Position numbers and translations under genes: made by a program. Shown here one piece after another: positions 1,828 through 29,062 of a stretch of 33,807 bases of DNA (the first letter of the stretch is position 1; each line of letters opens with the position of its first letter). The notes beneath the pieces were generated by a model. That model was given only the letters and a program-made list of their open reading frames with translations, did not search any database and was not told the DNA's origin. Source of the DNA: Escherichia phage vB_EcoM-12474III; sequence record NC_049457.1; one strand, given 5' to 3'.

Positions 1828-3600
1828 ATGACCATCACCACAGACACCACTCTTTTACACGACCCGCGTCGTCAGGCGGCGCTGCTGTACTGGCAGGGGT
1901 TTTCCGTGCCGCAGATTGCCGCCATGTTGCAGATGAAACGCCCGACGGTGCAGAGCTGGAAACAGCGCGACGGCTGGGACAGCGTTGCCCCCATCAGCCG
2001 TGTCGAAATGAGTCTGGAAGCGCGGCTGACCCAGCTCATCATCAAACCGCAGAAAACCGGCGGTGACTTCAAGGAAATTGACCTGCTGGGACGCCAGATT
2101 GAACGACTGGCACGGGTAAACCGTTACAGTCAGACCGGCAACGAGGCAGACCTTAATCCGAACGTCGCTAACCGCAACAAAGGCGGGCGGCGCAAACCGA
2201 AAAAGAATTTTTTCAGTGACGAGGCCATCGAAAAGCTGGAGCAGATTTTCTTTGAGCAGTCTTTCGAATATCAGCTGCACTGGTATCGCGCCGGGCTTGA
2301 GCACCGCATCCGCGATATCCTGAAATCCCGCCAGATTGGCGCGACGTTTTATTTTTCCCGCGAGGCGCTGCTGCGCGCCCTGAAAACCGGCCATAACCAG
2401 ATTTTTCTGTCGGCCAGTAAAACGCAGGCGTATGTGTTCCGCGAATACATCATCGCCTTTGCCCGTCTGGTTGACGTTGACCTGACCGGTGACCCGATTG
2501 TCCTGGGCAATAACGGTGCAAAACTGATTTTTCTCGGCACCAACTCCAACACCGCACAGAGCCATAACGGCGACCTGTACGTCGATGAGATTTTCTGGAT
2601 CCCGAATTTTCAGGTACTGCGTAAGGTAGCATCAGGTATGGCCTCACAGAGTCACCTGCGTTCGACCTATTTCTCCACCCCGTCCACGCTGGCGCACGAC
2701 GCCTACCCGTTCTGGTCGGGTGAACTGTATAACCGGGGACGCGCCAGCGCCGCCGAACGCGTGGAAATCGACGTCAGTCATAACGCCCTTGCCGGTGGGC
2801 TTCTCTGTGCGGACGGCCAGTGGCGACAGATTGTCACCATTGAGGACGCCCTGAAAGGTGGCTGCACGCTGTTCGACATTGAGCAGCTCAAACGCGAAAA
2901 CAGCGCCGACGATTTTAAAAACCTGTTCATGTGTGAATTTGTTGACGACAAGGCGTCGGTGTTCCCGTTCGAGGAGCTGCAACGCTGCATGGTCGACACG
3001 CTGGAAGAATGGGAAGACTATGCACCCTTTGCCGCCAATCCGTTCGGCTCCCGCCCGGTATGGATTGGTTACGACCCGTCACACCGTGGCGACAGCGCCG
3101 GATGCGTGGTGCTGGCACCGCCGGTGGTGGCCGGTGGCAAATTCAGAATACTTGAGCGTCACCAGTGGAAAGGCATGGACTTTGCCACCCAGGCTGAATC
3201 CATCCGCAAACTCACCGAAAAATATAACGTCGAATACATCGGTATTGATGCCACCGGCCTCGGTGTCGGCGTGTTCCAGCTCGTGCGCTCGTTCTATCCC
3301 GCCGCGCGCGACATCCGCTACACGCCGGAAATGAAAACCGCAATGGTGCTCAAGGCAAAAGACGTTATCCGCCGTGGCTGTCTGGAATATGACGTCAGCG
3401 CCACCGACATCACCAGCTCGTTTATGGCTATCCGCAAGACCATGACCAGCAGCGGACGCAGCGCCACCTATGAGGCCAGCCGCAGCGAGGAAGCCAGCCA
3501 CGCCGACCTCGCCTGGGCGACCATGCACGCCCTGTTAAATGAGCCACTCACCGCCGGTATCAGCACCCCGCTGACATCCACCATTCTGGAGTTTTACTGA
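1828..3600 (+). CDS. P: Terminase ATPase (large) subunit gpP
   Basis: MTITTDTTLLHDPRRQAALLYWQGFSVPQIAAM... (590 aa from the ATG at 1828) matches P2 gpP; divergent from O as in P2. Confidence 0.92.
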   Translation: MTITTDTTLLHDPRRQAALLYWQGFSVPQIAAMLQMKRPTVQSWKQRDGWDSVAPISRVEMSLEARLTQLIIKPQKTGGDFKEIDLLGRQIERLARVNRYSQTGNEADLNPNVANRNKGGRRKPKKNFFSDEAIEKLEQIFFEQSFEYQLHWYRAGLEHRIRDILKSRQIGATFYFSREALLRALKTGHNQIFLSASKTQAYVFREYIIAFARLVDVDLTGDPIVLGNNGAKLIFLGTNSNTAQSHNGDLYVDEIFWIPNFQVLRKVASGMASQSHLRSTYFSTPSTLAHDAYPFWSGELYNRGRASAAERVEIDVSHNALAGGLLCADGQWRQIVTIEDALKGGCTLFDIEQLKRENSADDFKNLFMCEFVDDKASVFPFEELQRCMVDTLEEWEDYAPFAANPFGSRPVWIGYDPSHRGDSAGCVVLAPPVVAGGKFRILERHQWKGMDFATQAESIRKLTEKYNVEYIGIDATGLGVGVFQLVRSFYPAARDIRYTPEMKTAMVLKAKDVIRRGCLEYDVSATDITSSFMAIRKTMTSSGRSATYEASRSEEASHADLAWATMHALLNEPLTAGISTPLTSTILEFY

Positions 3601-4634
3601 TGAGCAAGAAAAAAGGGAAAACACCGCAACCTGCGGCAAAAAAAATGACCGCCAGCGCCCCGAAAATGGAGGCATTCACCTTTGGTGAGCCGGTGCCGGT
3701 ACTCGACCGCCGTGACATTCTGGATTACGTCGAGTGCATCAGTAACGGCAGATGGTATGAGCCGCCGGTCAGCTTTACCGGTCTGGCAAAAAGCCTGCGT
3801 GCTGCCGTACATCACAGCTCACCGATTTACGTCAAACGTAATATTCTGGCCTCGACATTTATCCCGCATCCGTGGCTTTCCCAGCAGGATTTCAGCCGCT
3901 TTGTGCTGGATTTTCTGGTGTTCGGTAATGCGTTTCTGGAAAAGCGTTACAGCACTACCGGTAAGGTCATCAGACTGGAAACCTCACCGGCGAAATATAC
4001 CCGTCGTGGCGTGGAAGAGGATGTTTACTGGTGGGTGCCGTCCTTCAACGAGCCGACAGCCTTCGCGCCCGGCTCCGTGTTTCATCTGCTGGAGCCGGAT
4101 ATTAATCAGGAGCTGTACGGCCTGCCGGAATATCTCAGCGCCCTTAACTCTGCCTGGCTGAATGAGTCGGCCACGCTGTTCCGCCGCAAGTATTACGAAA
4201 ACGGCGCTCATGCCGGATATATCATGTACGTCACTGATGCCGTGCAGGATCGCAACGATATCGAAATGCTCCGCGAAAACATGGTGAAGTCGAAAGGCCG
4301 CAACAACTTTAAAAATCTGTTTCTCTATGCCCCACAGGGGAAAGCCGACGGCATCAAAATTATCCCGCTCAGTGAAGTGGCAACGAAGGACGATTTTTTT
4401 AATATCAAAAAAGCCAGCGCCGCTGACCTGCTGGACGCGCACCGCATCCCCTTTCAGTTGATGGGCGGCAAGCCGGAGAACGTCGGGTCACTGGGCGATA
4501 TTGAGAAAGTGGCAAAGGTCTTTGTCCGCAATGAGCTTATCCCGTTACAGGATAGGATCCGCGAGATAAACGGCTGGCTCGGTCAGGAGGTCATCCGCTT
4601 TAAAAACTACTCACTGGACACTGACAACGGCTGA
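3600..4634 (+). CDS. Q: Portal protein gpQ
   Basis: 344-aa ORF MSKKKGKTPQPAAKKMTASAPKMEAFTFGEP...; same length as P2 gpQ; its start overlaps the P stop (TGATG). Confidence 0.92.
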   Translation: MSKKKGKTPQPAAKKMTASAPKMEAFTFGEPVPVLDRRDILDYVECISNGRWYEPPVSFTGLAKSLRAAVHHSSPIYVKRNILASTFIPHPWLSQQDFSRFVLDFLVFGNAFLEKRYSTTGKVIRLETSPAKYTRRGVEEDVYWWVPSFNEPTAFAPGSVFHLLEPDINQELYGLPEYLSALNSAWLNESATLFRRKYYENGAHAGYIMYVTDAVQDRNDIEMLRENMVKSKGRNNFKNLFLYAPQGKADGIKIIPLSEVATKDDFFNIKKASAADLLDAHRIPFQLMGGKPENVGSLGDIEKVAKVFVRNELIPLQDRIREINGWLGQEVIRFKNYSLDTDNG

Positions 4635-4639
4635 ACATC

Positions 4640-4662
4640 GCCGCCTGCGGGCGGCTTTTTTA
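4640..4662 (+). terminator. Rho-independent terminator after P-Q
   Basis: GC stem gccgcc-tgcg-ggcggc followed by TTTTTT, immediately 3' of the Q stop. Confidence 0.8.
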
Positions 4663-4803
4663 TATCCCGTCATCACGCCCTCACACGCTCACCACCGCAC
4701 AAAACACCCCGCAGAGACACCAATGCCCCGGCGCACAATCTAAACGCCGTCACGACGCGCTCAGACGCTGAAAAAATAAAATCCGCACCACCGCCAGCGC
4801 GCA

Positions 4804-4822
4804 GTGCTTTCCCGCCTCGCCC
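4804..4822. other. cos: cos cohesive-end site (19 nt)
   Basis: Minus strand reads GGGCGAGGCGGGAAAGCAC, near-identical to the P2 cohesive end as I recall it (GGCGAGGCGGGGAAAGCAC); it lies about 170 bp beyond the Q stop, as in P2. Confidence 0.7.
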
Positions 4823-5008
4823 GCCCGCTTCATGGGTCGGTTTTAATGCAGTTGCATAACATATTATTCATAGCACCACTGTGAGTTTATGGCTTCATTT
4901 TAGCGAGTTACTTACGCATGCATTTTAATGCACATAATTGCAGTTCTAGCCTACGTTTAACTCCAGTGTTAATCTTTGCATATCACCATATCTAATGAGA
5001 TTAGAGTT

Positions 5009-6127
5009 ATGACAGAAAGCCTTGATTACATCGACCTCAATAAACTTGAGCTTGATACAAAAAATCCACGTCTTCCTGAAGGTGTTGAACGTACCCCAGA
5101 AGCAATGCTAAATCATATAGCTCTAACAACCTCTATTGAAGACTTGATGAATGCAATCGCAGAAAATGGATTTTTTCCTGGCGAGCCTCTTATTGCGGTT
5201 AAAGAGGGAGATAAGTACACCGTTGTGGAAGGCAACCGTCGCTTAACGGCAGTTAAACTTATTCATAACCCATATGAGTGCGACAGACCCAGCTCCCGGA
5301 TGATAGAAATCGCCGAAAGCGCTAAAGATAAACTAGGTACACTAGAAAAATTACCAGTGATCGTTAGAGATACCAGAGCTGAAATTTTACCTTATTTGGG
5401 TTTCAGACATATCACTGGTGTCAAACAATGGGAACCTCTATCGAAGGCTCGTTATATCGAGCAACTTTTTGGGCTCACCTCCCCAAACTCACCGACTAAT
5501 GATCGATATCATCAGGTTGCTCGTGCAATTGGTAGCAGAAAAGATCATATCAAGAGAAATCTAGATGCTTTAGCCGTTTATAAAGTAATGGAGAGCAATA
5601 ACTTTTATGATATTGATGGATTAGATGAAGAATCGATCAAGTTTTCAATTTTATCTACAGCCTTAGCTGACGAGAAAATTGGATTGTTTGTTGGCGTCTC
5701 AGAAAAAGACGAATATGGTGATATTACATCCAATGATGTAATAATTCACCCACATCATATAAATAGAGAAAATACCAGAGAACTTACACTATGGCTTTAT
5801 AAAAAGGATGATTCCGGGAAAACAAAGGTTGGAGAGTCCCGAAATTTACGCCTATTATCTTCTGTTATTGATAACCCCAAGGCTTTAACGTCCTTTAGAA
5901 ACGGGGCTGACCTTAAGGTTGCGTATCAGTTAACTGAAGACTTAAAACAAGATTTCATGACGTTACTTTATAAAGCTGAATCTGCATTAATTGAAGCGGC
6001 TGGAATTGTTGCAACCATTGATTACAATCCTGAAGCATTGGAAGTTGCAAGACGCCTAAGTCAAAATGTCAAACTTATTGGTAATACAATTAAAGCCAAA
6101 AAGGTTTCTGACGATGAAGATTTTTAA
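5009..6127 (+). CDS. ParB/Srx-fold (ParB N-terminal nuclease-like) domain protein, cargo gene
   Basis: N-terminus carries ParB-type motifs DTKNPR (aa 16-21) and VVEGNRRLTAV (aa 72-82, the GxRR box); ATG at 5009 follows a GAG-rich RBS; AT-rich relative to the core; overlaps the start of the next gene. Confidence 0.6.
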   Translation: MTESLDYIDLNKLELDTKNPRLPEGVERTPEAMLNHIALTTSIEDLMNAIAENGFFPGEPLIAVKEGDKYTVVEGNRRLTAVKLIHNPYECDRPSSRMIEIAESAKDKLGTLEKLPVIVRDTRAEILPYLGFRHITGVKQWEPLSKARYIEQLFGLTSPNSPTNDRYHQVARAIGSRKDHIKRNLDALAVYKVMESNNFYDIDGLDEESIKFSILSTALADEKIGLFVGVSEKDEYGDITSNDVIIHPHHINRENTRELTLWLYKKDDSGKTKVGESRNLRLLSSVIDNPKALTSFRNGADLKVAYQLTEDLKQDFMTLLYKAESALIEAAGIVATIDYNPEALEVARRLSQNVKLIGNTIKAKKVSDDEDF

Positions 6128-7106
6128 AATCGGAGACATTCATCCTAGTGTTCCTCATCTTTTTGCAGACCTTGCAGAACTTGCTACGGTTATAAATTAT
6201 TCTGGTCGTTATGATCTACATAAAAATGACCTCATAACAATAAGAACTCAAAGTAACACAAGTGTGGATGATATTGATCAAGAATATCAAGAAGATGAAA
6301 ATGAAGGCTGCGATGCTGAACGCAATGACCGTTTAGAAAGACAAGTTGAAGATGTCTGGACGCAACTCGATTTTAGACAAAATTTTCTCAAGGATATTTA
6401 TCCATTTATTATTAATGGTGACTTTATTTCATTGAAAGAAAACCTCACTGAGATACAAAGAATATATATTTTCTTACTCGCATGCTCGAGGTTACGTTCT
6501 TTCACAAAGGCTAGGCAAGGAATAATACAGTTTTGGGCAAAAAATTTTGCTGTCGTAAGTAAATTTTGTGCAACAGCACTACTCCCAGCACACTCAACTG
6601 TACGAGTATTTGACGCAAACTCAGATGACAGGCGAAAATATTATGGTACTGATTTAAGAAAAGCCTTGAAAAGGCTAGGAAAAGACTTAGCTGTTCCTTA
6701 TATTAATGAGCAAGAGTGCGAAAGAGCTGATCCGAGAGGTGATGGTGGTTTTGATATAGTTGCAACTATAGAATTTGAAGATAAATTAAGTAGTAACTTT
6801 GCCTTTTTAGGTCAATGTGGAGCCCAAGAAAGAGATTGGCCCAAAAAAACACTTGAAGCCCACTCATTGAAACTACGAACATATTTTCAAGTGCATTTTG
6901 ACATACCAACTCTAATGTTTACCCCCGTATTCTATCGAAACTCAGATGGTCAATGGGTAGACAATAGCCCTTGCGCTGGAGTATTGATCATTGACAGAGC
7001 AAGGATATTACAGCTTTTAAAAAAGACAAACCATTGCCCTAAAATAGTTTCAGAACAATGGTTTCTTGATTTCGAACAAATTATCAATGATCTTAAGGTC
7101 GAATAA
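6114..7106 (+). CDS. Hypothetical protein with a possible PD-(D/E)xK nuclease motif; operon partner of the ParB-fold gene
   Basis: ATG at 6114 overlaps the upstream gene end (6127); protein contains RGDGGFDIVATIEFEDK (aa 208-224), reminiscent of the Mrr-type GDGGxD ... ExK catalytic signature; AT-rich. Confidence 0.5.
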   Translation: MKIFKIGDIHPSVPHLFADLAELATVINYSGRYDLHKNDLITIRTQSNTSVDDIDQEYQEDENEGCDAERNDRLERQVEDVWTQLDFRQNFLKDIYPFIINGDFISLKENLTEIQRIYIFLLACSRLRSFTKARQGIIQFWAKNFAVVSKFCATALLPAHSTVRVFDANSDDRRKYYGTDLRKALKRLGKDLAVPYINEQECERADPRGDGGFDIVATIEFEDKLSSNFAFLGQCGAQERDWPKKTLEAHSLKLRTYFQVHFDIPTLMFTPVFYRNSDGQWVDNSPCAGVLIIDRARILQLLKKTNHCPKIVSEQWFLDFEQIINDLKVE

Positions 7107-8045
7107 CTAATCCCAAATATCTGGAAGAGATTTAGCAACCGCCTCAAATAAAGGAGGCGGAACAGCATTGCCAACTACTGTATACTTCATATTAATAGAA
7201 GCCCGTTCAGTTTCTGGAAAAATTAGGTCTCCAAAACCCTGTAAAATAGCGGCCTCTCGATAACTAAACCTACGAGCTGGTGCATCCGAAGTAAATTGCC
7301 ACTTATCTGGACCCAATTTTTCTAATGTTGGACTTATTGGATGTAGAGGCATATGTCTAGGATTTGCAACAATTGTTTTAGATATCTGATCCCAATCTTG
7401 CCGACGGTTGCGCGATAGATAATACCAATGAAAATCGGCATCATAAAACTCACCAATAGGCCAAACAGGCATATGACCAATAGCATCACGAATTGTTGAA
7501 TATGGTTTCAAGCCATCACCATGTGTTGGTTTTGGAAATTTGTATGTAATACCATAGTCTTTTCGTATTCCTACGATAAAGATTCTCTTCCTATCTTGTG
7601 ATACGCCATAGTGGGACGCATTCAGAATTTGCGAGCTTACTGTATAACCTGCTTCTTCGAAAACTTTGAATTGATCCTTTAACAAATGTTCAAAGTTACG
7701 CCTTACCATTCCAGAAACATTCTCTACAATGAATGCTTTTGGCTTAATCTTTCTCAAAGCACGAGCAAACTCTAAATATAGAGTATTAATCTTTCTATCT
7801 GCCTTCCTTGCTCCACCCTGGCTAAATCCCTGGCAAGGATAGCATCCGATAAGCAATTCGGCAGAAGGGAACGATTGGAGTCCTGAAATATCGCCCAATA
7901 TGTAATCAGTTTCAGGATGGTTTTCTAAGTAAACGTCCCTTGCATAAGGCAAAATATCGTTTGCCATCAGCACATTGAACCCTGCTCTCAAAACTCCCGC
8001 ATCAGAACCACCACATCCAGAAAAAAGTGAAACTACAGTTGGCAT
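7107..8045 (-). CDS. DNA (cytosine-5)-methyltransferase
   Basis: Canonical C5-MTase motifs: FSGCGG (motif I, aa 8-13), PCQGFS (motif IV, aa 70-75), ENV (motif VI, aa 108-110), a QDRKR motif (VIII-like) and a C-terminal GNAVPPPL; convergent with, and abutting, the 6114..7106 gene. Confidence 0.88.
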   Translation of the reverse strand: MPTVVSLFSGCGGSDAGVLRAGFNVLMANDILPYARDVYLENHPETDYILGDISGLQSFPSAELLIGCYPCQGFSQGGARKADRKINTLYLEFARALRKIKPKAFIVENVSGMVRRNFEHLLKDQFKVFEEAGYTVSSQILNASHYGVSQDRKRIFIVGIRKDYGITYKFPKPTHGDGLKPYSTIRDAIGHMPVWPIGEFYDADFHWYYLSRNRRQDWDQISKTIVANPRHMPLHPISPTLEKLGPDKWQFTSDAPARRFSYREAAILQGFGDLIFPETERASINMKYTVVGNAVPPPLFEAVAKSLPDIWD

Positions 8046-8257
8046 CGCCCCTCCTAAAAACCGACCGCGTATTATAGCGAAACCACCCCTTGGGAAAAGC
8101 TAGATTTCGCCAAGTTTTGATATTCTCATGTTTTAGTAGTTGTGGCCATCTTTAACGAGAGAAAGATGAAATTGAGTTCTCATTAATTTTCAATAGGTTT
8201 AATTGTAAACACAGCAGGAATCAAAGCTAACACGTCGCTACGCTCATTGTTCAACCC

Positions 8258-8290
8258 CGCCATCTCTGAAAACAAGTTTCAGAAATGGCG
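8258..8290. promoter_or_regulatory. Imperfect palindrome upstream of the methyltransferase gene
   Basis: cgccatctctgaaa-acaag-tttcagaaatggcg, 13/14 complementary arms; sits in an AT-rich spacer about 210 bp upstream of the MTase start. Confidence 0.35.
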
Positions 8291-8296
8291 AGTATA

Positions 8297-8542
8297 CTAC
8301 ATCCTATGCGGTAGTTTCTTAGGCATGTTTGCTGGTCGAAATACCTCAATTTTCTGTCTACTGATATCGTTAAACCGTCTGTAATTATCCCGGACCATTT
8401 CGGCACACCCGACCAGCTCATCAGGCGTCAGATTTTCGTTGACCATAATCTGCTGTAGACGGTGGACAATGGCCATCAGCTTGATATTTTTAGTTTTATG
8501 CTGCGGTATCTCGCCTGGTATTCTGTGCATTATCCAAGCCAC
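8297..8542 (-). CDS. Small hypothetical protein (81 aa; start uncertain, possibly 8476)
   Basis: ORF only; occupies the position of the small post-A ORFs in P2-like phages. Confidence 0.4.
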   Translation of the reverse strand: MAWIMHRIPGEIPQHKTKNIKLMAIVHRLQQIMVNENLTPDELVGCAEMVRDNYRRFNDISRQKIEVFRPANMPKKLPHRM

Positions 8543-8982
8543 CCGTTTTGCTGTGCACGCTCCATCTGTTCATCTGAATAGTTCCATGCTCCATCCGTGG
8601 CAACCATTGCCCCGCCAGACACCCCCGTCTCTGGTTCATACATAACAGCAAGGCCGAGCTGATGCATAATTTCATGATTAATTCTGAATACCAGGCCACG
8701 CTCACTAAGTTCTTTCCAGTTCACAATCTCATATGCGCTTGTATTAAGCAGCTCAATACTTAGCAAGACATAATCTTCCAGCCAGTCTGACAGGTCAGTA
8801 ACATCTGTTATCCGGGCTTCAACCTTTCGCCCCGTAAACACACCCTGTACCCATTCATGCAAAATCAGCGTATCCCCGCGCTCATAATTACGGTCATTTT
8901 TCCGAAACTCTGCACGTTTCTTTCCTTCCAGCACAAGGTCGAAATATTTTGCGTGCAGCTTTACCTCGTGAATTTTTGCCAT
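8530..8982 (-). CDS. ASCH/DUF3850-like protein with a C-terminal HExxH motif
   Basis: MAKIHEVKLHAKYFDLVLEGKKRAEFRKNDRNYERGDTLILHEW... resembles PUA-like ASCH/DUF3850 domains; C-terminal part contains HEIMH followed by YEPE; ATG at 8982 overlaps the end of A. Confidence 0.6.
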   Translation of the reverse strand: MAKIHEVKLHAKYFDLVLEGKKRAEFRKNDRNYERGDTLILHEWVQGVFTGRKVEARITDVTDLSDWLEDYVLLSIELLNTSAYEIVNWKELSERGLVFRINHEIMHQLGLAVMYEPETGVSGGAMVATDGAWNYSDEQMERAQQNGWLG

Positions 8983-11267
8983 GATGTCCACTCCATTACT
9001 GTTGAGAATCCCGGCCACACATCAGCGACCAGATACGTGAATTTTTTTCCGTCATAATTTACGGTTGCTCCACGCGCCAGCGCCTCAAGTTCCCATCGCT
9101 GAGGCCAGATGCCGTTCTGAGCAAGGTCAACACGGATACGGGTAATTTGCATACGCTCCGACCGGGTCAGCCTGGCCGATGGCGCTATTTCATTCGGTTT
9201 TAACGGGCTTCCGTTTCTTTGCTGACGGTTTGGTGTTCTCAGGCCGTGTTTTAATGCGCCCCTGAGCGCCCTCACGACCTCCGGGTCATTCCATTCGATA
9301 ACACCGTCATCAACCAGATTAAGCACGGCTGCGGCGCGCTCAGAAGGTGTGGGAGCCGGTAACGAAGTATCACCACCGGTGAGCTTTCCACAGTTATTGA
9401 CAGGACTCCGAGGCGCGGCGATGCCGCTTTTTAAAGTCAAAGGCTCAACGACCGGCACTTTCGGAACAATGCGCCAGTCCGTCGTTCTGGTGATATGAAT
9501 ATGACGCGCGCCGAGATGCGGCGCGTAAATGCCGACCACTCTCTCGACTTCTTCCTCGTACTCGTTAACTTCATCCGACGGACTACGGGCGACCCTGACA
9601 GTCTGACAATCGCGCGGGACATTTGCCCCACCCTGCGCGCTGATATACAGCGCAAAATCACCACTGTCTGCGGCGGCGCGTGCAGCCTCGACGCGCTCGT
9701 CAAACTCATCAGCAATGCTGACGCCGCGAGGCAATTTGCGTAGTTCACGGTAAGCCCCCATTGTCGGCAGGCCAACCGTTTTAAATTGCGGAATGCGCCA
9801 CGTTGACGCCCATGCGGTAACAGCCGCGGCAGTATCTTTCAGCGGTCTGCCGGTATCGTTATCGAGCTGCCCATCCAGTGCATAGCCGTCGATATTTTTT
9901 GAGATGTATTTCGCGATATACCCCGCAGCACCGCCCCGATTAAGATGTTTTGCCTGAAAACGGTTTCGCGCGGCTCCTCTTTCGTCGCCATCCTCTTTGA
10001 GCGCATAGCGACGCATGATTTCAATAATCTGGTTACGCTGGCGTGGATTACAAAAAAGCATCATATGCCAGTGCGGCGTTCCGTCGTGGTGTGGCTCAAC
10101 GACACGCAAACCGTAGGCCTGTAAATCATTATCCTTGAATGCCGTGCGCATCAGGCTCCAGATACGGCAGAGATAACGCTGCGCATCCTTTGGATTAAAT
10201 GCCTCATGGTTCCAGCCGTGATTAAGCTGGACGGTTTTACTTTCGCCTTTTCCGACCTGACGTGTCGGGTGATACTTTGACGGCGCGGTCAGCGTGATAA
10301 ACATCCCCACATCACCCTCTGCGGCGGCGTAACGCTCAATACCGGCAATGGTGTTCATCAGCTCCATCCGGCGAATTTCAGGATTAGAAATACTGCCCAT
10401 CACCTTACTGATAAGGTCGATGCGTTCGCCGGTTTCCCTGTTTTCAAGGTCACACGATTTAAGAAATTCCAGATTTGCCTGGCGGCGTGCACGTACATCA
10501 CGAATGGCATGTTTACTGGCATAAGGAGAACGGTCTTTATTCACCGCCCCGACAGCAATCAGTAACGCCTCATGCCAGCGCATACGCTGGCCTTTAAGCT
10601 GATGAGCCCACCACTCATCGTTAAACAGACGGGCAATGGCAGAATATGCCTGCCTCGTGGTCATCTGCCCTTTACGGTATTTTTTCCAGTAGAGAGGGGA
10701 AATATTGAAAGCTCGTGCAGCGCCAGCAACATGACCATACAGGTGAGCCTGCGCCTCATCCGTAAACAGCGATTCTTTCTCGCCATGCGCATCCACCCAG
10801 GCATCGCTGAGTTCCTCATACATCATGAAAAGCTGCGATGAGATACGGGCGGCAAATTTTTTCAGCTCCTTGTCATTCATTCCCGGCAGGCGCGCATAGT
10901 GGTCACGCTCTGCCAGAAACAGTAACGACGCGTCGGTGTTCATTTCATGGCGCTGATTCACACGCTCAATGCGCGGCCATAAACGACGCTGAAAAGTGGA
11001 TGTGAGAAAATAAAACCCGTGCACCGGGCTTTTATTGCGCCGGATGTAGTCATAGCGTGAAGTAAACAGCGAGCGCAAAAAGTAAGGCAGGCGGTTAATC
11101 GTGGATAAAACACCTTGCACCTGACGCATCTCGTCACGTGTAAGGGGTCTTTCGCGCCCGACAGCCTCGCGTGGCGCGTTCCATGCATAAGCACCGGTAA
11201 ACGCCTTACCGGTGCCTGCGGCAAATGCTGACGGAGGGACAAAACGCCCGGAGGCTTTAACGGCCAT
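8961..11267 (-). CDS. A: Rolling-circle replication initiator endonuclease gpA
   Basis: Long ORF; from MAVKASGRFVPPSAFAAGTGK... it matches P2 gpA as I recall it (about 761 aa); start chosen at that Met. Confidence 0.9.
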   Translation of the reverse strand: MAVKASGRFVPPSAFAAGTGKAFTGAYAWNAPREAVGRERPLTRDEMRQVQGVLSTINRLPYFLRSLFTSRYDYIRRNKSPVHGFYFLTSTFQRRLWPRIERVNQRHEMNTDASLLFLAERDHYARLPGMNDKELKKFAARISSQLFMMYEELSDAWVDAHGEKESLFTDEAQAHLYGHVAGAARAFNISPLYWKKYRKGQMTTRQAYSAIARLFNDEWWAHQLKGQRMRWHEALLIAVGAVNKDRSPYASKHAIRDVRARRQANLEFLKSCDLENRETGERIDLISKVMGSISNPEIRRMELMNTIAGIERYAAAEGDVGMFITLTAPSKYHPTRQVGKGESKTVQLNHGWNHEAFNPKDAQRYLCRIWSLMRTAFKDNDLQAYGLRVVEPHHDGTPHWHMMLFCNPRQRNQIIEIMRRYALKEDGDERGAARNRFQAKHLNRGGAAGYIAKYISKNIDGYALDGQLDNDTGRPLKDTAAAVTAWASTWRIPQFKTVGLPTMGAYRELRKLPRGVSIADEFDERVEAARAAADSGDFALYISAQGGANVPRDCQTVRVARSPSDEVNEYEEEVERVVGIYAPHLGARHIHITRTTDWRIVPKVPVVEPLTLKSGIAAPRSPVNNCGKLTGGDTSLPAPTPSERAAAVLNLVDDGVIEWNDPEVVRALRGALKHGLRTPNRQQRNGSPLKPNEIAPSARLTRSERMQITRIRVDLAQNGIWPQRWELEALARGATVNYDGKKFTYLVADVWPGFSTVMEWTSWQKFTR

Positions 11268-20464: not shown

Positions 20465-21655
20465 TTAATTGCTGTTAACCGAGGTGACCAGATTTGCCAG
20501 GTATTTATCGGTAATACGCTGGCGCAGGGTCAGGTTTTCAAGAGGAGGTACCGGTGTATAGTCGTAGTCGATATACAGTTTTCCGGCCTTGAGGGTTTCC
20601 GCATCGTTGGATTCTTCGCTGAACCAGCAGGTCGCATCCACGATATAGCCGTTTGTTTTCAGCTCACGGAATTTGGCATTGATGCCGTCAACGATGTCGC
20701 GAATCAGCGTTGCGGTGATGGGCTTGTCCACCGCCCACATGTGCGCCTCAGCCATCGTGTCGGCCAGCACCTGCGCGGTGCGGGTGTAGTTTTCAAAGAG
20801 GAACAGCTGGTCATCAGAGCAGGTACGGTTACCCCAGAAGCGGAAACCGTCGCGGCGAATCAGCGTAGTGACGCCTGACTCGTTAAGCAGGTCAGCATCG
20901 GTGCCGGACTCCTGCAAATCCCAGAATACAGATGCGCTGATGCCGGTAACACCGTTCACCCCGACATTGGACAGCGTTTTATGCCAGCCCTGCTCCTGGT
21001 CGATTTTGGCACGCAGCCCCAGTGCACGGGCGGTTGCATACGCGGTGGCGGTGATACTGGTGACCGTATCCCATGCGAGGAAATCCGGCCAGATGACCAT
21101 CAGCTCACGCTGGCTGAAATTCTGGCGGTAAGCTTTCACCTCGGAAATGGTTTTACAGCCCCATGCGCTGATATACCCGAAAGCGCGCAACTTCTGACAG
21201 ACTGATGCCAGTGCAACCGCCACCTCTTTGGTGTCCAGTCCCGGCACACCGAGAATACGCGGTTTAACACCGGTAACCGACTCCGCCGCCAGCAGGGCTT
21301 TCAGTCCGGTGTACTGACCGTTTTCGTCGGTGGTGCCGATGATATTGGAAACAGTCTGCGCAAGTTTCGTTTCTTCGTCGTCGCCGGTGCCGTCTTCCAC
21401 ACGCACGACTACGGTGACCGGTTTTGACTGGTCAGCGATGGCCTGCAACGACGCCGCCAGCGTGCCTTTTTTACCGGCCTTTGCAATTGCGCTCTGCACA
21501 TTGGTAATCAGCACCGGTTTATTGAGGGGGAAGATTTCCGCATCCGCATCGCTGGCCGTGCAGACCATGCCAACAATGGCGGTGGATACGGTGGAAATGA
21601 CGCGGGTGCCGTCGTTAATCTCCAGCACCTGCACGCCGTGATGATAGTCACTCAT
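20465..21655 (-). CDS. FI: Contractile tail sheath protein gpFI
   Basis: 396-aa ORF MSDYHHGVQVLEINDGTRVISTVSTAIVGMVCTASDADAE..., matching P2 FI. Confidence 0.92.
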   Translation of the reverse strand: MSDYHHGVQVLEINDGTRVISTVSTAIVGMVCTASDADAEIFPLNKPVLITNVQSAIAKAGKKGTLAASLQAIADQSKPVTVVVRVEDGTGDDEETKLAQTVSNIIGTTDENGQYTGLKALLAAESVTGVKPRILGVPGLDTKEVAVALASVCQKLRAFGYISAWGCKTISEVKAYRQNFSQRELMVIWPDFLAWDTVTSITATAYATARALGLRAKIDQEQGWHKTLSNVGVNGVTGISASVFWDLQESGTDADLLNESGVTTLIRRDGFRFWGNRTCSDDQLFLFENYTRTAQVLADTMAEAHMWAVDKPITATLIRDIVDGINAKFRELKTNGYIVDATCWFSEESNDAETLKAGKLYIDYDYTPVPPLENLTLRQRITDKYLANLVTSVNSN

Positions 21656-21749
21656 CCGTTTAACTCCGTGGTTAATGGGTGCAACTATTTTCTGTTGTGC
21701 AGAGCATAAGACGCTATTTGACCTGACTGGTCAGTGGATGAAACAACAG

Positions 21750-21779
21750 ATTAAAGAAAAGGCGGGCAACTCGCCCGCC
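21750..21779 (-). terminator. GC-rich hairpin with T-tract (minus-strand sense) between cargo gene 2 and FI
   Basis: Minus strand: ggcgggc-gagtt-gcccgcc followed by TTTTCTTTAAT. Confidence 0.55.
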
Positions 21780-21973
21780 CGTCCTGATTTGTACTCACTC
21801 ATTTTTCAACTGACAATTTACATAGCCCAAACGCTATCAAATCTGACAGCCTATTTTGAGCGAAAAGCAGACATTAGCATCCTTCTTATAGAAAAGGTAA
21901 ACCTGCTTCTATTTGTTAATCAATAGAGAGTAAGTCACAATGGCAGATACGAATATCGGCTGGAGAAATTAAA

Positions 21974-23056
21974 TTGAAACCAGAGCAAATGAAAAACAGG
22001 GAAGAATTAACTAGCTTTGCAACGAAACTTGCTACTCAAATCAAGATGCAAACCAGCAGCAATTTAAATGATCTTTCTACAGCCCAAGAGAGCTCGCTAT
22101 TGCCTCTAATCAATCATGCCTGGGGAGAGCAGTTTGAGGATATGAATAGGATATCCCAAAACTACCCTGGTCTCGACTATGTGCAACCGGGAAAGCGCTT
22201 AGGTTTGCAAATGACTGCCACTGCAAGAAAGGTTAAGTATCAGAAAACATTAGACAAACTTCGAAATAATGAGAAGTTAAAGGGTAAGTTTGACGAGATT
22301 TGGTTTTTCGTCCTCACGGCTGAACGCCTACCTGATAACGTACGTGAACACCCTGACGATTTTCAGTGCAAATATTTCACATTGTACGACCTAGTCGAAA
22401 AGGTAATGGGACAGACTTTAGAATTTCAGCGTGATTTTTTGACCCTTGCCCGGAAAGAATACTCGGATTATTTCTCTCCTGGGGACGTTGCTTTCAATCA
22501 GGGGTATTGTGTATCAGAAAACAAGCCGATCCCCTTTGACTTGAGTCTTTTCAACGCGTTAATTCATACTAATGAATGGTTTGATGATGTTGACGAAGGT
22601 GAGCAGATCGTATATGAATTTCTAGAACTTTTTAAAAATAGACTGCGTCAATGCACTTTATCTGCTAGAAATCTTTTAAGCAAAATTATCAGTGAGATAA
22701 ATATACCGAAGAGTACAAGCACGAAAATCGAGTTTCCTGAAAAGCAACTTTTCGGGCCACTAATGATTGACGATACAAACTATCAATCTTTTTCAAAAGA
22801 CCTTGATGATTTGTTCGAGATGAGTCTTATTGAACGATGGGACAATTATGTTGGAATGTACTATAAGGGTGATGATGCATATATCAAAAATGAACGTATG
22901 ATCAGCGTGTCATTTCCAAAGATTGAACCCGAAATGAATCTGTATGCGGCGTTATATATCTTTTATGAAAAAAATCATGATATTGCAAAACTTGTGAACG
23001 CAATTGAAAATAGTGATTTTTCTCTGCTCGCTGACAGCACTTGCCAAAATAATTAG
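21974..23056 (+). CDS. Hypothetical 360-aa protein, AT-rich cargo between FI and G (start TTG at 21974 with GGAG 8 nt upstream; alternative ATG at 21989)
   Basis: Long ORF on the strand opposite to all flanking late genes; visibly AT-rich codon usage; no transmembrane segments; no family recognised. Confidence 0.7.
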   Translation: MKPEQMKNREELTSFATKLATQIKMQTSSNLNDLSTAQESSLLPLINHAWGEQFEDMNRISQNYPGLDYVQPGKRLGLQMTATARKVKYQKTLDKLRNNEKLKGKFDEIWFFVLTAERLPDNVREHPDDFQCKYFTLYDLVEKVMGQTLEFQRDFLTLARKEYSDYFSPGDVAFNQGYCVSENKPIPFDLSLFNALIHTNEWFDDVDEGEQIVYEFLELFKNRLRQCTLSARNLLSKIISEINIPKSTSTKIEFPEKQLFGPLMIDDTNYQSFSKDLDDLFEMSLIERWDNYVGMYYKGDDAYIKNERMISVSFPKIEPEMNLYAALYIFYEKNHDIAKLVNAIENSDFSLLADSTCQNN

Positions 23057-23307
23057 TTAGTAAAAGGATGCATTTATGCTCTTAGTTACTCACTCTGTTG
23101 AATTTATTTTAAGTTATTAATATAGATATGGGCTTATATATCTTTAATAGAAATGACTAGCGTGAAAAATATGGGGCTAACTGGTCTGCCTCTCTTTTGA
23201 CCAAGACAATTTGCTGGAAAACTTCCGCTCTTGGCACAGAGCGGACTGTCAGATTAGACTTTACTCTGTGCCATAGATATGTAAGCTCCCACCAGAGCTC
23301 ATACAAC

Positions 23308-23835
23308 TTACTGCGGCATTTCCGGCCATTCAGGATTTGCAGGATCCACACGACTGACCAGAACACTGTAGCGTTCCCATGCTTCCAGTCGGCTGCGTTC
23401 CTCCTCTGTTGCCATATTCAGCCTGACAGCGCGCTCCAGCAGCAAAATCACGGATTCAGCTTCGGAAAGTAAAGTTGCCTTTTGTGATTCTGCCAGTTGA
23501 TGCTGTTCGTCTGCCGTATAAATCCGCTTAATCACGGCACCATCCTTAAACATCCATTTACCTGAGTCATCAGCACGTCGGTTGGCGGTAATATCAGGAA
23601 CCTCGACAACGCTAAAACCTTCAGGGTTAAGCGTTGAAGCATCTCTGGTGATGCCGACAATTATATTATTCTCGTCGTAAACAATCTTTATCGTGTCTTC
23701 CTGAAAATTACTTACTTCCTCATACCAGTTTTTTCCGTCTTCAGACCATAACCAGACAACATCAAAATTTTTTGTCAGTTGATATTGGGCAACAGTTTTG
23801 GGATTACCCGCAGTAATATTTTTTAAATGCTGCAT
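23308..23835 (-). CDS. G: Tail fiber assembly protein gpG
   Basis: 175-aa ORF, matching P2 gpG length and position downstream of H. Confidence 0.85.
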
Positions 23836-23838
23836 AAA

Positions 23839-25767
23839 TTACACCTGTGCGACGTTATACCATGTGCCATTAATGTATTTTTGTATTGGTCTGAATACTG
23901 CGGGGTCATCACCATCGACTTCACCGACAATACCAAGCCCTGTAATTACATGGCCTGATTTTTCATACATCACACCTTTTTGCATAGTCTGAACAACACG
24001 TGTGCCCAGGCGAATATCTCGTACATAGCGAGAATCCGATTCAGCTTTGGTATATGCACCAACATCTCCCGCAGAGGGTTTGCGGGTTGTGGTGTAAAAC
24101 TCTGACCAGTTAGCCTCAAATCCATAACCATCACGTGCTGAACGATAAAAAATACCGCCGTTCTTATAATTCACACGGAACTGTACGGCAGGGCAACTCC
24201 CCGCATTCATATTGAAGTGGAGGATTAATGTCGATGCACCGCTGATATCTGCATCATAAACACCGCTATTCCAGTTCCAGCCAACAGCTTTATCATTTGC
24301 AACCCTGCTTCCTGTTTGCCCTAAAGCAAATGCAGGCTGCTGGTTTTTCGTGTTGTAGTCTCGTCGCCAGCCGGGGGCATAAGCATCACCATGATTAATA
24401 TAAGTGAATTGAGCGTTAGTGGTGCCGCCTCCGGTAGAAGTGCTTGGTGTTGTTACACGGATGGTCATGGCACCTTTATTACCCATAACCTCAATAACGC
24501 AACCTGCAAGATGAATAGTTCCACAGCCAGTATCGGTAATAATTTTATTATTGCCGTATGACCATGAACATTTGCACATCCAGTACGGATGATTAAATGC
24601 ACCACGGGAATCCAGCCATTCAATAAACTGAGCGGTTGTCCAGTTTCCGGCTTCAGTGCTCAAAGCGCCGCTATAAGCACGACAGGCACCGATATTTTTC
24701 GTGAAGGTATCCTTTCCCGGAATATCCGCACCGTTCTGATCTTTCTGAAGACGTTTTTCAGCATTGTCATAGGCAGACTTCACTGCTTTTGGTGTTGCGG
24801 CCAGCGTTTCAGAATCACTGTTGGCGGCGCTACTGAGCTGAACAAGACCTTTCCGCGCCGTGGTGGCGTCCTGTGCAGTGTATTTCCCGTTAGCAAGGTC
24901 ATACGCGGCCTTTACCGCCTTTGGCGTTGCCGCAAGCGTTTCAGAATCGCTGTTGGTGACGCTACTGAGCTGGACAAGACCTTTTCGCGCTGTGGTGGCG
25001 TCCTGTGCGGTATATTTCCCGTTAGCAAGGTCATATGCTGCTTTTACCGCTTTTGGTGTTGCGGCAAGCGTTTCAGACGTGCTGTTGGTGGCACTACTGA
25101 GCTGGACAAGACCTTTTCGCGCTGTGGTAGCGTCCTGTGCGGTATATTTCCCGTTAGCCAGGTCATATGCGGCCTTAACCGCTTTCGGCGTTGCAGCCAG
25201 TGTTTCAGACGTGCTGTTGGTCGCACTGCTTAACTGAGTAAAACCTTTTGCGGTCAGCGAGGCGTCCGGGTGACGTCGTGACTGTTCATGTTCTGCAATT
25301 TTGTCATCAACGTAATCCTGCGTCGCCATCACCGTTGTGGTGTCAATGGTCAGCTCCACTGAGGTCACACTGCTGACGATGATGACCATGCGACAGGTCT
25401 GCGAACGCCCTGAGCCTTCGGCAAGAGCTGGCTTATAACTTTCGGCCATGTTCGCCACGGCAATTAATGTTCCCGCATCATCGTACAGGCCAAGCTCACG
25501 CATCCAGAAACCGCCCACCTCCGGCGGAATAACCAGCTCTGCGATAATATAATTACTGTTTCGTTTGTCCTGGCTGATTTTGTTCAGCGCATGTCGCCAG
25601 ACTTCATGGATAAGCCCGGTCTGTCCGGCATCCGGGACAGGCAATTTACCACCGCCATCCCCGACGGCCATCGTGGTAATGTTGACCTTCCGCCCTCCCG
25701 GCGCGGTTGCCGCTGCCAGCTTTGCTGCACCGGCAGTGGTGATAACGGTTCTGAATTTTGTGCTCAT
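23839..25767 (-). CDS. H: Tail fiber protein gpH
   Basis: 642-aa ORF; N-terminus MSTKFRTVITTAGAAKLAAATAPGGRKVNITTMAVGDGGG... is P2 H-like; contains internal 44-aa tandem repeats. Confidence 0.9.
   Translation of the reverse strand: MSTKFRTVITTAGAAKLAAATAPGGRKVNITTMAVGDGGGKLPVPDAGQTGLIHEVWRHALNKISQDKRNSNYIIAELVIPPEVGGFWMRELGLYDDAGTLIAVANMAESYKPALAEGSGRSQTCRMVIIVSSVTSVELTIDTTTVMATQDYVDDKIAEHEQSRRHPDASLTAKGFTQLSSATNSTSETLAATPKAVKAAYDLANGKYTAQDATTARKGLVQLSSATNSTSETLAATPKAVKAAYDLANGKYTAQDATTARKGLVQLSSVTNSDSETLAATPKAVKAAYDLANGKYTAQDATTARKGLVQLSSAANSDSETLAATPKAVKSAYDNAEKRLQKDQNGADIPGKDTFTKNIGACRAYSGALSTEAGNWTTAQFIEWLDSRGAFNHPYWMCKCSWSYGNNKIITDTGCGTIHLAGCVIEVMGNKGAMTIRVTTPSTSTGGGTTNAQFTYINHGDAYAPGWRRDYNTKNQQPAFALGQTGSRVANDKAVGWNWNSGVYDADISGASTLILHFNMNAGSCPAVQFRVNYKNGGIFYRSARDGYGFEANWSEFYTTTRKPSAGDVGAYTKAESDSRYVRDIRLGTRVVQTMQKGVMYEKSGHVITGLGIVGEVDGDDPAVFRPIQKYINGTWYNVAQV
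24760..25250. repeat. Tandem 132-bp coding repeat (about 3.7 copies) inside tail fiber gene H
   Basis: gttagcaagg / gttagccagg landmarks recur at 24889, 25021 and 25153 (period 132); the protein repeats KGLVQLSSATNSTSETLAATPKAVKAAYDLANGKYTAQDATTAR. Confidence 0.9.
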
Positions 25768-28276: not shown

Positions 28277-29062
28277 ATGGTCAGCTATAATGTGACTAAT
28301 GTGTGGGGGCTAATCGTTTTTTTCCTTTGTAGCTTTGCAGTATTAGCATTTTTTAGCTTTGGTAAAAGTAACCTTATGAGGCTTATTGCACATTATTTCA
28401 ATTTTGGATATTCAGACAAAAAATTAAAAAGACTTGACCGCGAGTGGCGCGACATTCAACTATTTAAAATAATTAACGGAATCAATGTATCAGGCATTGA
28501 AAATGTGAGAATGATACAGCAGGGACTGATTGATGGAAAACTAAAAACATCGTATTTTTTCCTTACTCGCATCTGGGGTGACATAACAAAACCACCACAC
28601 ATAATTAAAACAATAATTGTAATTCTGGCCAGTATTTTTTACATTCTCCTCGCATGTTATATACACAACAAACAATCCGCTATAGTAAGAGATGCCATAG
28701 GCATACCATATAAAAATATGATGTACTATGTTTATAGTGACAAAGTTCTTTTATCCTTCAACAATAAAACAGTTGAATTCAATAAAACTTATAGCCTTGC
28801 CGATTGCAAGAGGCTACGAAACGTATTTATAAAAGACACACTTCCTGAGATCGCCTGCAATAAGCTCTTACAGCTAAACGAGGAGGACTCCGAATGGTTA
28901 AGTCAGGAGATTAAAGATAATAACAGCCAAAAAAAAGCATTATTAATAATATCCCTCATCTATTTCATTTCAGGTCTGGTTATATTCCTGTCATATACAA
29001 AATTCCTTTACGCCAATAAGAAGGTTGTAGAATACAAAGCATCAAATAAAAATCACTCATAA
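28277..29062 (+). CDS. Predicted membrane protein (261 aa), AT-rich cargo between V and S
   Basis: ATG at 28277 with an AGGAG RBS 6 nt upstream; three hydrophobic helix-like segments (aa about 10-30, 115-135, 225-245); strongly AT-rich; strand opposite to the flanking late genes. Confidence 0.75.
   Translation: MVSYNVTNVWGLIVFFLCSFAVLAFFSFGKSNLMRLIAHYFNFGYSDKKLKRLDREWRDIQLFKIINGINVSGIENVRMIQQGLIDGKLKTSYFFLTRIWGDITKPPHIIKTIIVILASIFYILLACYIHNKQSAIVRDAIGIPYKNMMYYVYSDKVLLSFNNKTVEFNKTYSLADCKRLRNVFIKDTLPEIACNKLLQLNEEDSEWLSQEIKDNNSQKKALLIISLIYFISGLVIFLSYTKFLYANKKVVEYKASNKNHS

Follow-up and report, generated by a model that had tools for sequence, protein, structure and literature searches.

A stand-alone SMEK-domain gene in the Z/fun hotspot of a P2-like Escherichia phage as a candidate single-protein anti-phage nuclease

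What is the role of a lone gene that lies between the late genes FI and G of Escherichia phage vB_EcoM-12474III and is read against both? The question arises at positions 21656-23307 of a stretch of 33,807 nucleotides (nt) from sequence record NC_049457.1, here called the window, which belongs to a P2-like Peduovirus. A sequence-only reading of the window had described an open reading frame (ORF) of 360 amino acids (aa) on the strand opposite to the flanking late genes, and coordinates, strands and the RefSeq annotation all agree with this: the ORF is antisense to FI and G, and all neighbouring late genes are on the minus strand. The region 21656-23307 occurs with 100% identity in Escherichia phages vB_EcoM-12474II, vB_EcoM-12474IV and vB_EcoM-12474V and in a prophage of E. 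coli O145:H28; the paper on the isolation of the phage holds no functional data on the gene. Our favoured answer, to which we give about an even chance of being right, is that the product (WP_021578884.1) is a single-protein anti-phage nuclease, the C-terminal domain of which senses a phage cue and releases indiscriminate DNA cleavage with an abortive outcome.

That the ORF is a real gene under purifying selection, and not a chance ORF, follows from pairwise ratios of nonsynonymous to synonymous substitution rates (dN/dS) of 0.15-0.29 among five loci, which are similar in both halves of the protein. The probable TTG start with a good ribosome-binding site (RBS), as first read from the letters alone, was borne out by a GGAG 8 nt upstream, by conservation of the TTG, and by PGAP/RefSeq, which calls the same start at 21974. 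The codon and the next residues, K/E-P-E-Q, are kept in four homologous loci, the upstream in-frame stop lies at 21917, and no ATG, GTG or TTG occurs in frame from there to the TTG. Further support for this start comes from the Morganella homolog, because it carries a Lys at the position of the alternative Met6. Two further candidates were not taken as genes: an 83-aa ORF at 21675..21926, most of which lies within conserved P2 backbone, and an ATG at 21940, which overlaps the candidate -10 box. No Rfam families and no tRNAs were found in the intergenic regions.

The N-terminal half belongs to the SMEK_N/Mrr-like nuclease domain family, as judged by profile thresholds, active-site residues and fold. 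Here the sequence-only reading, which could name no motif, has to be corrected: this half is a curated family, and RefSeq already lists the protein as 'SMEK domain-containing protein', so that the domain call itself is not new. Pfam SMEK_N (PF21941) matches with an E value of 1.6e-19 and 70.6 bits against a cut-off of 27, NCBIfam NF033859 with an E value of 1.9e-24 and 85.3 bits against a cut-off of 30, and the family profile aligns over residues 7-121 with PDB entry 26bh, the Mrr domain (KjMrr) of a Mrr-APAZ prokaryotic Argonaute (pAgo) from Kordia jejudonensis (E 8.5e-13). Residues D33, E39, N47, F54, D68, Q79, T81 and K88 are invariant in 12 diverse sequences, among them a SMEK protein of IncX1 plasmids described below, and the E/D/QxT/K positions align to both KjMrr and the IncX1 protein. 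Membership in a phage family of structural or housekeeping function, which the sequence-only reading had listed as speaking against a role in exclusion, did not come out of the searches.

The fold was examined in an AlphaFold2 (AF2) model, built from an alignment of 20 sequences, with a predicted local distance difference test (pLDDT) score of 83.6; a model based on 11 close homologs only reached 54.8 and was discarded. Secondary structure elements of the N-terminal domain follow each other as H36-50, E69-71, E76-81, H86-98, E108-113 and E131-136 (H, helix; E, strand), an order fitting the alpha-beta-beta-beta-alpha-beta core of restriction endonuclease-like proteins, and in the putative active site helix 2 provides the E, strand 2 the D, strand 3 the QxT and the helix after it the K. 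Fold matches were modest: MspJI came with a Foldseek probability of 0.85 and viral restriction endonucleases of the Mrr type with a best E of 5.5e-3, and AspBHI, FAN1, AF1548, EcoT38I and NucS were matched as well; Foldseek against the PDB gave no significant match (best E 0.06). Several weaker candidates were set aside as below threshold or inconsistent, namely Pfam AbiJ_NTD4 (E at least 0.09), which maps to aa 110-165 of the nuclease domain, the Pfam matches Rep3_N WH1, TriTu and NCH2, and a PDB sequence match to a ubiquilin UBA domain (E 0.83).

In the AF2 model the nuclease domain is joined by a disordered linker to a second domain that is helical and winged-helix-like. For this C-terminal domain, sequence searches of Pfam, NCBIfam, PADLOC and the PDB gave no family match, and in PHROGs the whole protein falls into phrog_36490, which is functionally unannotated. 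The C-terminal domain is strongly acidic in all family members, with an isoelectric point (pI) of 4.2-5.7 and a net charge of -6 to -19, and the would-be recognition helix (helix 3), which reads YQSFSKDLDDLFE in WP_021578884.1, is acidic too, as is the wing. Few of its residues are invariant; these are mostly hydrophobic, in addition to R232, N194 and a D348-F-S motif. Because the acidity is family-wide and includes recognition helix and wing, the domain would seem better suited to protein binding, oligomerisation, regulation or autoinhibition than to the reading of DNA.

The place in which the gene resides is informative as well. The sequence-only reading had recognised the Z/fun slot of P2; alignment to P2 confirms the position, and the slot has been named a second defence hotspot of P2 (PMC9519451). 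In P2-like phages this FI-G position is described as a second locus rich in defence genes, with fun and three experimentally selected systems (Vassallo et al. 2022, PMC9519451). The cargo of vB_EcoM-12474III forms a cassette of about 1.35 kb, the boundaries of which (about 21877 and 23221) lie just inside an imperfect inverted repeat, and its GC content stands out, with 0.34-0.43 over the insert versus 0.53-0.60 in the flanks. Backbone sequence between FI and the cassette shows 91-96% identity to P2, P2-EC31 and other Peduovirus genomes. The two arms correspond to the inverted repeats that the P2-EC31 Z-region record AJ512677 lists on the left and on the right; a seed of 9 nt would be expected by chance, and the case for the repeat is made by its symmetrical position and its conservation. 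P2 Z/fun and ORF1 of P2-EC31 occupy the identical G-FI position, with the same backbone junctions and inverted repeats, but are different genes: the 299-aa ORF of P2 is unrelated (best BLASTP E of the SMEK protein to fun(Z), 7.9), and P2-EC31 ORF1, considered as a relative for its similar length of 362 aa, proved to be unrelated too. Since the P2 Z/fun ORF is co-directional with FI and G and hence on the strand opposite to that of the SMEK gene, the antisense orientation is a property of this cargo and not of the slot. In E. coli the cargo is rare: only 21 of 998 complete genomes with the shared flanks carry it (~2%), and these copies, nearly all of them from O145 strains, are all at least 99% identical.

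About 110 nt upstream of the TTG are conserved in five loci, those of the E. coli phage, of a prophage in Morganella, of an Enterobacter chromosome, of a plasmid-like contig from Citrobacter and of an IncF plasmid from Klebsiella. They include a candidate sigma-70 promoter, the pattern TTG(T/A)TA-N16/17-(A/C)A(T/C/A)AAT of which is kept in these five loci from phage, chromosome and plasmids; a consensus promoter scan of the leader gave no match, the candidate being below the scan threshold and drawn from conservation across loci only. As this leader with promoter and GGAG is conserved wherever the gene occurs, the gene appears to travel with its own expression signals. A minus-strand terminator had also been proposed to insulate the cargo from FI. 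The hairpin does exist, and it is conserved in P2 and P2-EC31; being shared with the backbone, however, it is no part of the cargo, which is transcribed away from FI and whose transcript would not be terminated there. Directly after the Morganella homolog (around 7120-7160 of locus L004) comes a compact GC hairpin between runs of A and T (AAAGGGGCAGGGCCCCTTTT), a candidate bidirectional terminator; no equally clear terminator is seen after the SMEK gene in the window. A 38-nt direct repeat (22934-22971 and 23116-23153, 71% identity), which joins the 3' end of the coding region to the 3' untranslated region (UTR), is probably due to chance or a recombination scar.

The family is small. An exhaustive HMMER search with the profile of the C-terminal domain in 1.84 billion representative proteins returned 12 clusters only, and two word-based protein searches with the full-length and the N-domain profile gave the same clade or fragments only. 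Every full-length member has 345-362 aa and the same architecture of SMEK_N plus C-terminal domain; named members come from Escherichia, Klebsiella, Enterobacter, Citrobacter, Morganella, Serratia, Rahnella, Acinetobacter and Pseudomonas, and they are annotated solely as 'SMEK domain-containing protein' or 'hypothetical'. The homolog of a P2-like prophage in Morganella sits in the same G-FI slot, again antisense. Others are found on conjugative IncF plasmids of K. pneumoniae, on a Rep3 plasmid-like contig that also bears Mrr_cat and Dam genes, and at prophage ends, where they adjoin SRAP, umuDC, AbiH and integrase genes. Two homologs are part of islands, one with AbiJ_NTD3 and a Gabija-like pair (OLD-TOPRIM ATPase and UvrD helicase), the other with nSTAND3, RnlA/RnlB, DUF5677, CHAT and an AAA_15 ATPase, while the Serratia homolog adjoins a DUF2971 gene matching the PADLOC candidate PDC-S31.

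Among the 12 homolog loci examined, no conserved neighbour gene was found, so that the family behaves as a unit of one gene. The idea of a conserved pair of genes was rejected, since the genes downstream in distant loci (a 353-aa ORF in Acinetobacter, the DUF2971/PDC-S31 gene in Serratia) are not homologous to each other. One arrangement does recur: on the Enterobacter kobei chromosome (5178-10593 of locus L003) and at an Acinetobacter pittii prophage end (2821-8056 of locus L017), the SMEK gene lies beside an SRAP gene and a umuD/umuC-like pair. On the K. pneumoniae IncF plasmid NZ_CP124695 (around 6880-6925 of locus L010), a remnant of the left junction of the P2 Z locus and of the inverted repeat precedes the homolog (TTTGAGCGAAGAGCGGACATTAGCATC), which suggests a transfer of the cassette between a P2-like phage and the plasmid, along with part of the repeat.

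SMEK domains are known as effectors of multi-component defence systems. They act as swappable effectors in short pAgo systems, in place of TIR, SIR2, HNH or DREN, and the SMEK-APAZ/pAgo heterodimer from Kordia shows weak collateral cleavage of double-stranded and single-stranded DNA (PMC10810196, PMC12205087). SMEK is also listed among the N-terminal effector domains of LmuA in short Lamassu (PMC12663957). In both kinds of system the nuclease stays silent until the sensor part reports invading DNA. WP_021578884.1 shares with the SMEK-APAZ effector of the Kordia KjAgo system a homologous N-terminal nuclease with the same conserved E...D...QxT...K positions, and with LmuA the effector type and its N-terminal place in a protein coupled to a sensor. 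In contrast to the short pAgo systems it has no APAZ, its C-terminal domain being unrelated and family-specific: homologs reach position 171 of the 463-position PADLOC profile at most, and the search with the C-domain profile found no APAZ proteins. Genes for PIWI or short pAgo proteins were found neither at the locus in the window, where FI and G are the only neighbours, nor at the 12 homolog loci, and the window and the homolog loci likewise yielded no LmuB (SMC-like) or LmuC neighbours and no match to the PADLOC Lamassu models. Because these defining partners are absent, the SMEK protein is placed, by its domain and gene content, outside the short pAgo and Lamassu systems.

Another stand-alone SMEK_N protein on a mobile element is WP_000902514.1 (307 aa) of IncX1 plasmids. 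Its N-terminal domain aligns to that of WP_021578884.1 (hhalign probability 96%), but its C-terminal half is helical and unrelated, which indicates that SMEK_N is fused in a modular way to different C-terminal domains. The gene (4938-5861 of locus L011) lies beside two HEPN-domain genes and a plasmid topoisomerase gene and is widespread on conjugative IncX1 plasmids of ~40 kb in E. coli and Salmonella.

How, then, might the protein work? In the reading that we favour, the cassette would be an autonomously expressed moron in the Z/fun defence hotspot, with the Mrr-like PD-(D/E)xK domain as DNA-cutting effector and the C-terminal domain as a sensor or regulator that would keep the nuclease silent in the lysogen. 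Upon infection by another phage, the C-terminal domain would release the nuclease, the probable means being the binding of a phage component, oligomerisation or both, and the released enzyme would degrade DNA indiscriminately, leading to an abortive or collateral outcome. Nuclease activity, trigger, gating and abortive outcome are what we infer; the defence role as such is supported by the use of this effector type in known defence systems, by the lack of a conserved partner gene, by the gene's own conserved promoter and RBS, by the places where homologs occur, namely defence islands, plasmids and prophage ends, and by the documented nature of the G-FI slot as a defence hotspot that is also occupied in the Morganella P2-like prophage. 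The earlier proposal of a single-gene exclusion or abortive-infection protein thereby survives in its first part, an autonomous single-gene cargo likely engaged in phage exclusion, with abortive infection as one of two live mechanisms. The protein could moreover be the first representative, carried by a phage, of a hitherto undescribed family of single-protein defence systems. In these a SMEK nuclease, so far met only as the output of Argonaute and Lamassu systems, would act on its own, gated by a new acidic winged-helix-like domain that serves as phage-protein sensor or DNA-mimicking autoinhibitor, though in this full form the proposal is tentative and rather doubtful.

Several points weigh against such a defence nuclease. 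We found no literature on WP_021578884 or on any stand-alone SMEK defence protein, phenotypes included. The only PADLOC match is to the nuclease part of Aga_REase-PNTD1-PNTD2 (E 4e-18, profile positions 3-113 of 463); a comparison with defence profiles, which the sequence-only reading had suggested, accordingly brought this partial match and no full-length PADLOC v2 model, PD- and PDC- models included. Some homolog contexts are not defence-like, such as the metabolic genes around the copies on Klebsiella IncF plasmids, and the interdomain arrangement of the AF2 model is of low confidence (predicted template modelling score, pTM, 0.51). The QxT...K layout, finally, departs from the canonical (D/E)xK, catalytic competence being assumed from conservation in the family. 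This departure could be taken to mean that the nuclease fold is inactive and that the protein has a non-enzymatic role, as lysogenic-conversion factor, regulator or scaffold, or no selectable role in the host at all, and the nuclease activity of the KjAgo-associated SMEK protein is indeed only weak; yet the E, D, Q, T and K positions are strictly conserved in divergent members, both domains are under purifying selection, and promoter and RBS are conserved, which makes an inactive fold the least probable of the explanations, and a very improbable one.

The most serious rival, though still an unlikely one, is a Type IV-like modification-dependent restriction endonuclease. In that case the winged-helix-like C-terminal domain, or the nuclease domain itself, would read modified phage DNA, the Mrr-like domain would cut it, and the cell would survive; unmodified DNA or DNA of the host pattern would escape, and this would account for the protein doing without an immunity partner. 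Like Mrr, MspJI and AspBHI, WP_021578884.1 is a single polypeptide of Mrr-like PD-(D/E)xK fold, encoded by a lone gene with no methyltransferase partner; the closest folds to its nuclease domain are those of MspJI, AspBHI and Mrr-type enzymes, and a preprint places AspBHI as the nearest characterised homologue of SMEK (bioRxiv 10.1101/2023.06.08.544223). Compared to these enzymes, however, the nuclease comes first in the protein, a reversal of the domain order, and the C-terminal domain is acidic throughout the family down to helix 3 and wing, which is atypical of a domain that reads DNA. Of the known readers of modified bases (SRA, YTH, ASCH and others) none was detected in the protein, a basic winged-helix DNA reader was not seen in it either, and similarity to Mrr_cat is not detectable by Pfam. 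Moreover, SMEK is a triggered collateral effector in the known systems, and the same phage encodes a C5-cytosine methyltransferase, which constrains a methyl-dependent specificity without excluding it. A further alternative, which we hold to be quite improbable, is that the gene serves the mobile element rather than the cell, be it as a nuclease against competing plasmids or prophages, a toxin for addiction or stabilisation, an endonuclease of the recombination or homing type that drives its own spread into the Z locus, or an anti-defence factor. PD-(D/E)xK homing endonucleases exist, the gene is carried by conjugative plasmids and prophages, inverted repeats bracket the cassette, and the remnant of the left P2 repeat that precedes the copy on the Klebsiella plasmid points to movement of the cassette from one replicon to another. 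But the Z slot of other P2-like phages holds many unrelated genes, a pattern that swapping at a hotspot fits better than homing, the gene is present in only 2% of E. coli P2-like Z loci, an antitoxin-like partner ORF is absent, and several distant homologs lie in defence islands.

The coordinates of the features of the locus are collected in Table 1.

Table 1. Features of the FI-G locus in the window of phage vB_EcoM-12474III.
Feature	Position	Strand	Details or evidence
FI tail sheath gene, left backbone flank	20465..21655	-	396-aa ORF; tail sheath in RefSeq and MK907236
P2 backbone intergenic region upstream of FI	21656..21876	.	Ends where P2 similarity stops
Terminator-like GC hairpin and T-run	21780-21760	-	9 pairs, 7 of them GC (scan); backbone feature, not cargo
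Inverted repeat, left arm	21837..21871	.	35 nt, 71% complementary to 23224-23258 (repeat search)
Low-GC cargo cassette (promoter, RBS, gene, 3' UTR) replacing Z/fun	21877..23221	+	P2 and P2-EC31 alignments, GC profile
Candidate sigma-70 promoter TTGTTA-N17-CACAAT	21913..21941	+	Conservation across five loci
Shine-Dalgarno GGAG	21962-21965	+	8 nt before TTG; conserved in the five loci compared, as GGAT in the K. pneumoniae IncF copy
Coding sequence, SMEK-domain protein WP_021578884.1	21974..23056	+	360 aa, TTG start
SMEK_N / Mrr-like PD-(D/E)xK nuclease domain	21974..22468	+	aa 1-165
Conserved-residue codons	E39 22088-22090; D68 22175-22177; Q79 22208-22210; T81 22214-22216; K88 22235-22237	+	
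Flexible linker	22478..22519	+	aa 169-182; pLDDT <50, length varies in family alignment
Acidic helical and winged-helix-like domain, family-specific	22520..23053	+	aa 183-360
Inverted repeat, right arm	23224..23258	.	With a hairpin, CCGCTCT-N6-AGAGCGG, at 23225-23244, immediately after the end of G
G tail-fibre assembly gene, right backbone flank	23308..23835	-	ORF and RefSeq annotation

The window holds further cargo apart from the SMEK gene. At the old/tin hotspot (5009-8045), between the portal gene Q and the replication gene A, three cargo genes were found: one for a protein of 372 aa, the N-terminal ~150 aa of which match PADLOC PD-Lambda-5_A (E 7.5e-23) and PDC-M38A, an overlapping 330-aa ORF with no match, and a convergent gene for the C5-cytosine DNA methyltransferase mentioned above (PF00145, E 3.7e-62); together they may form a restriction-modification-like or PD-Lambda-5-like system. 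A second antisense single-gene cargo, at 28277-29062 on the plus strand, takes the P2 orf30 position between the spike gene V and the tail-completion genes and encodes a protein of 261 aa for which no Pfam or PADLOC match was found. The translated tail fibre gene H (23839-25767, minus strand) contains four tandem copies of a unit of ~44 aa (TAQDATTARKGLVQLSSATNSTSETLAATPKAVKAAYDLANGKY).

P2-like prophages are a major reservoir of immunity in E. coli, and their G-FI (Z/fun) hotspot is far less explored than old/tin. What appears to be new here is a rare family of stand-alone SMEK proteins, putative nucleases with an undescribed acidic winged-helix-like C-terminal domain, apparently mobile with their own promoter and recurrently resident in phages and defence hotspots. 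The cargo pairs an effector known from multi-component systems (short Argonaute, Lamassu) with a rare C-terminal domain that lacks a curated family model. If active, it would provide a minimal one-protein model for the restraint and triggering of SMEK effectors and would widen the defence repertoire by a new sensor domain. As the gene is fixed in the prophage of the O145:H28 lineage of Shiga-toxin E. coli, it may also shape the phage susceptibility of this pathogen.

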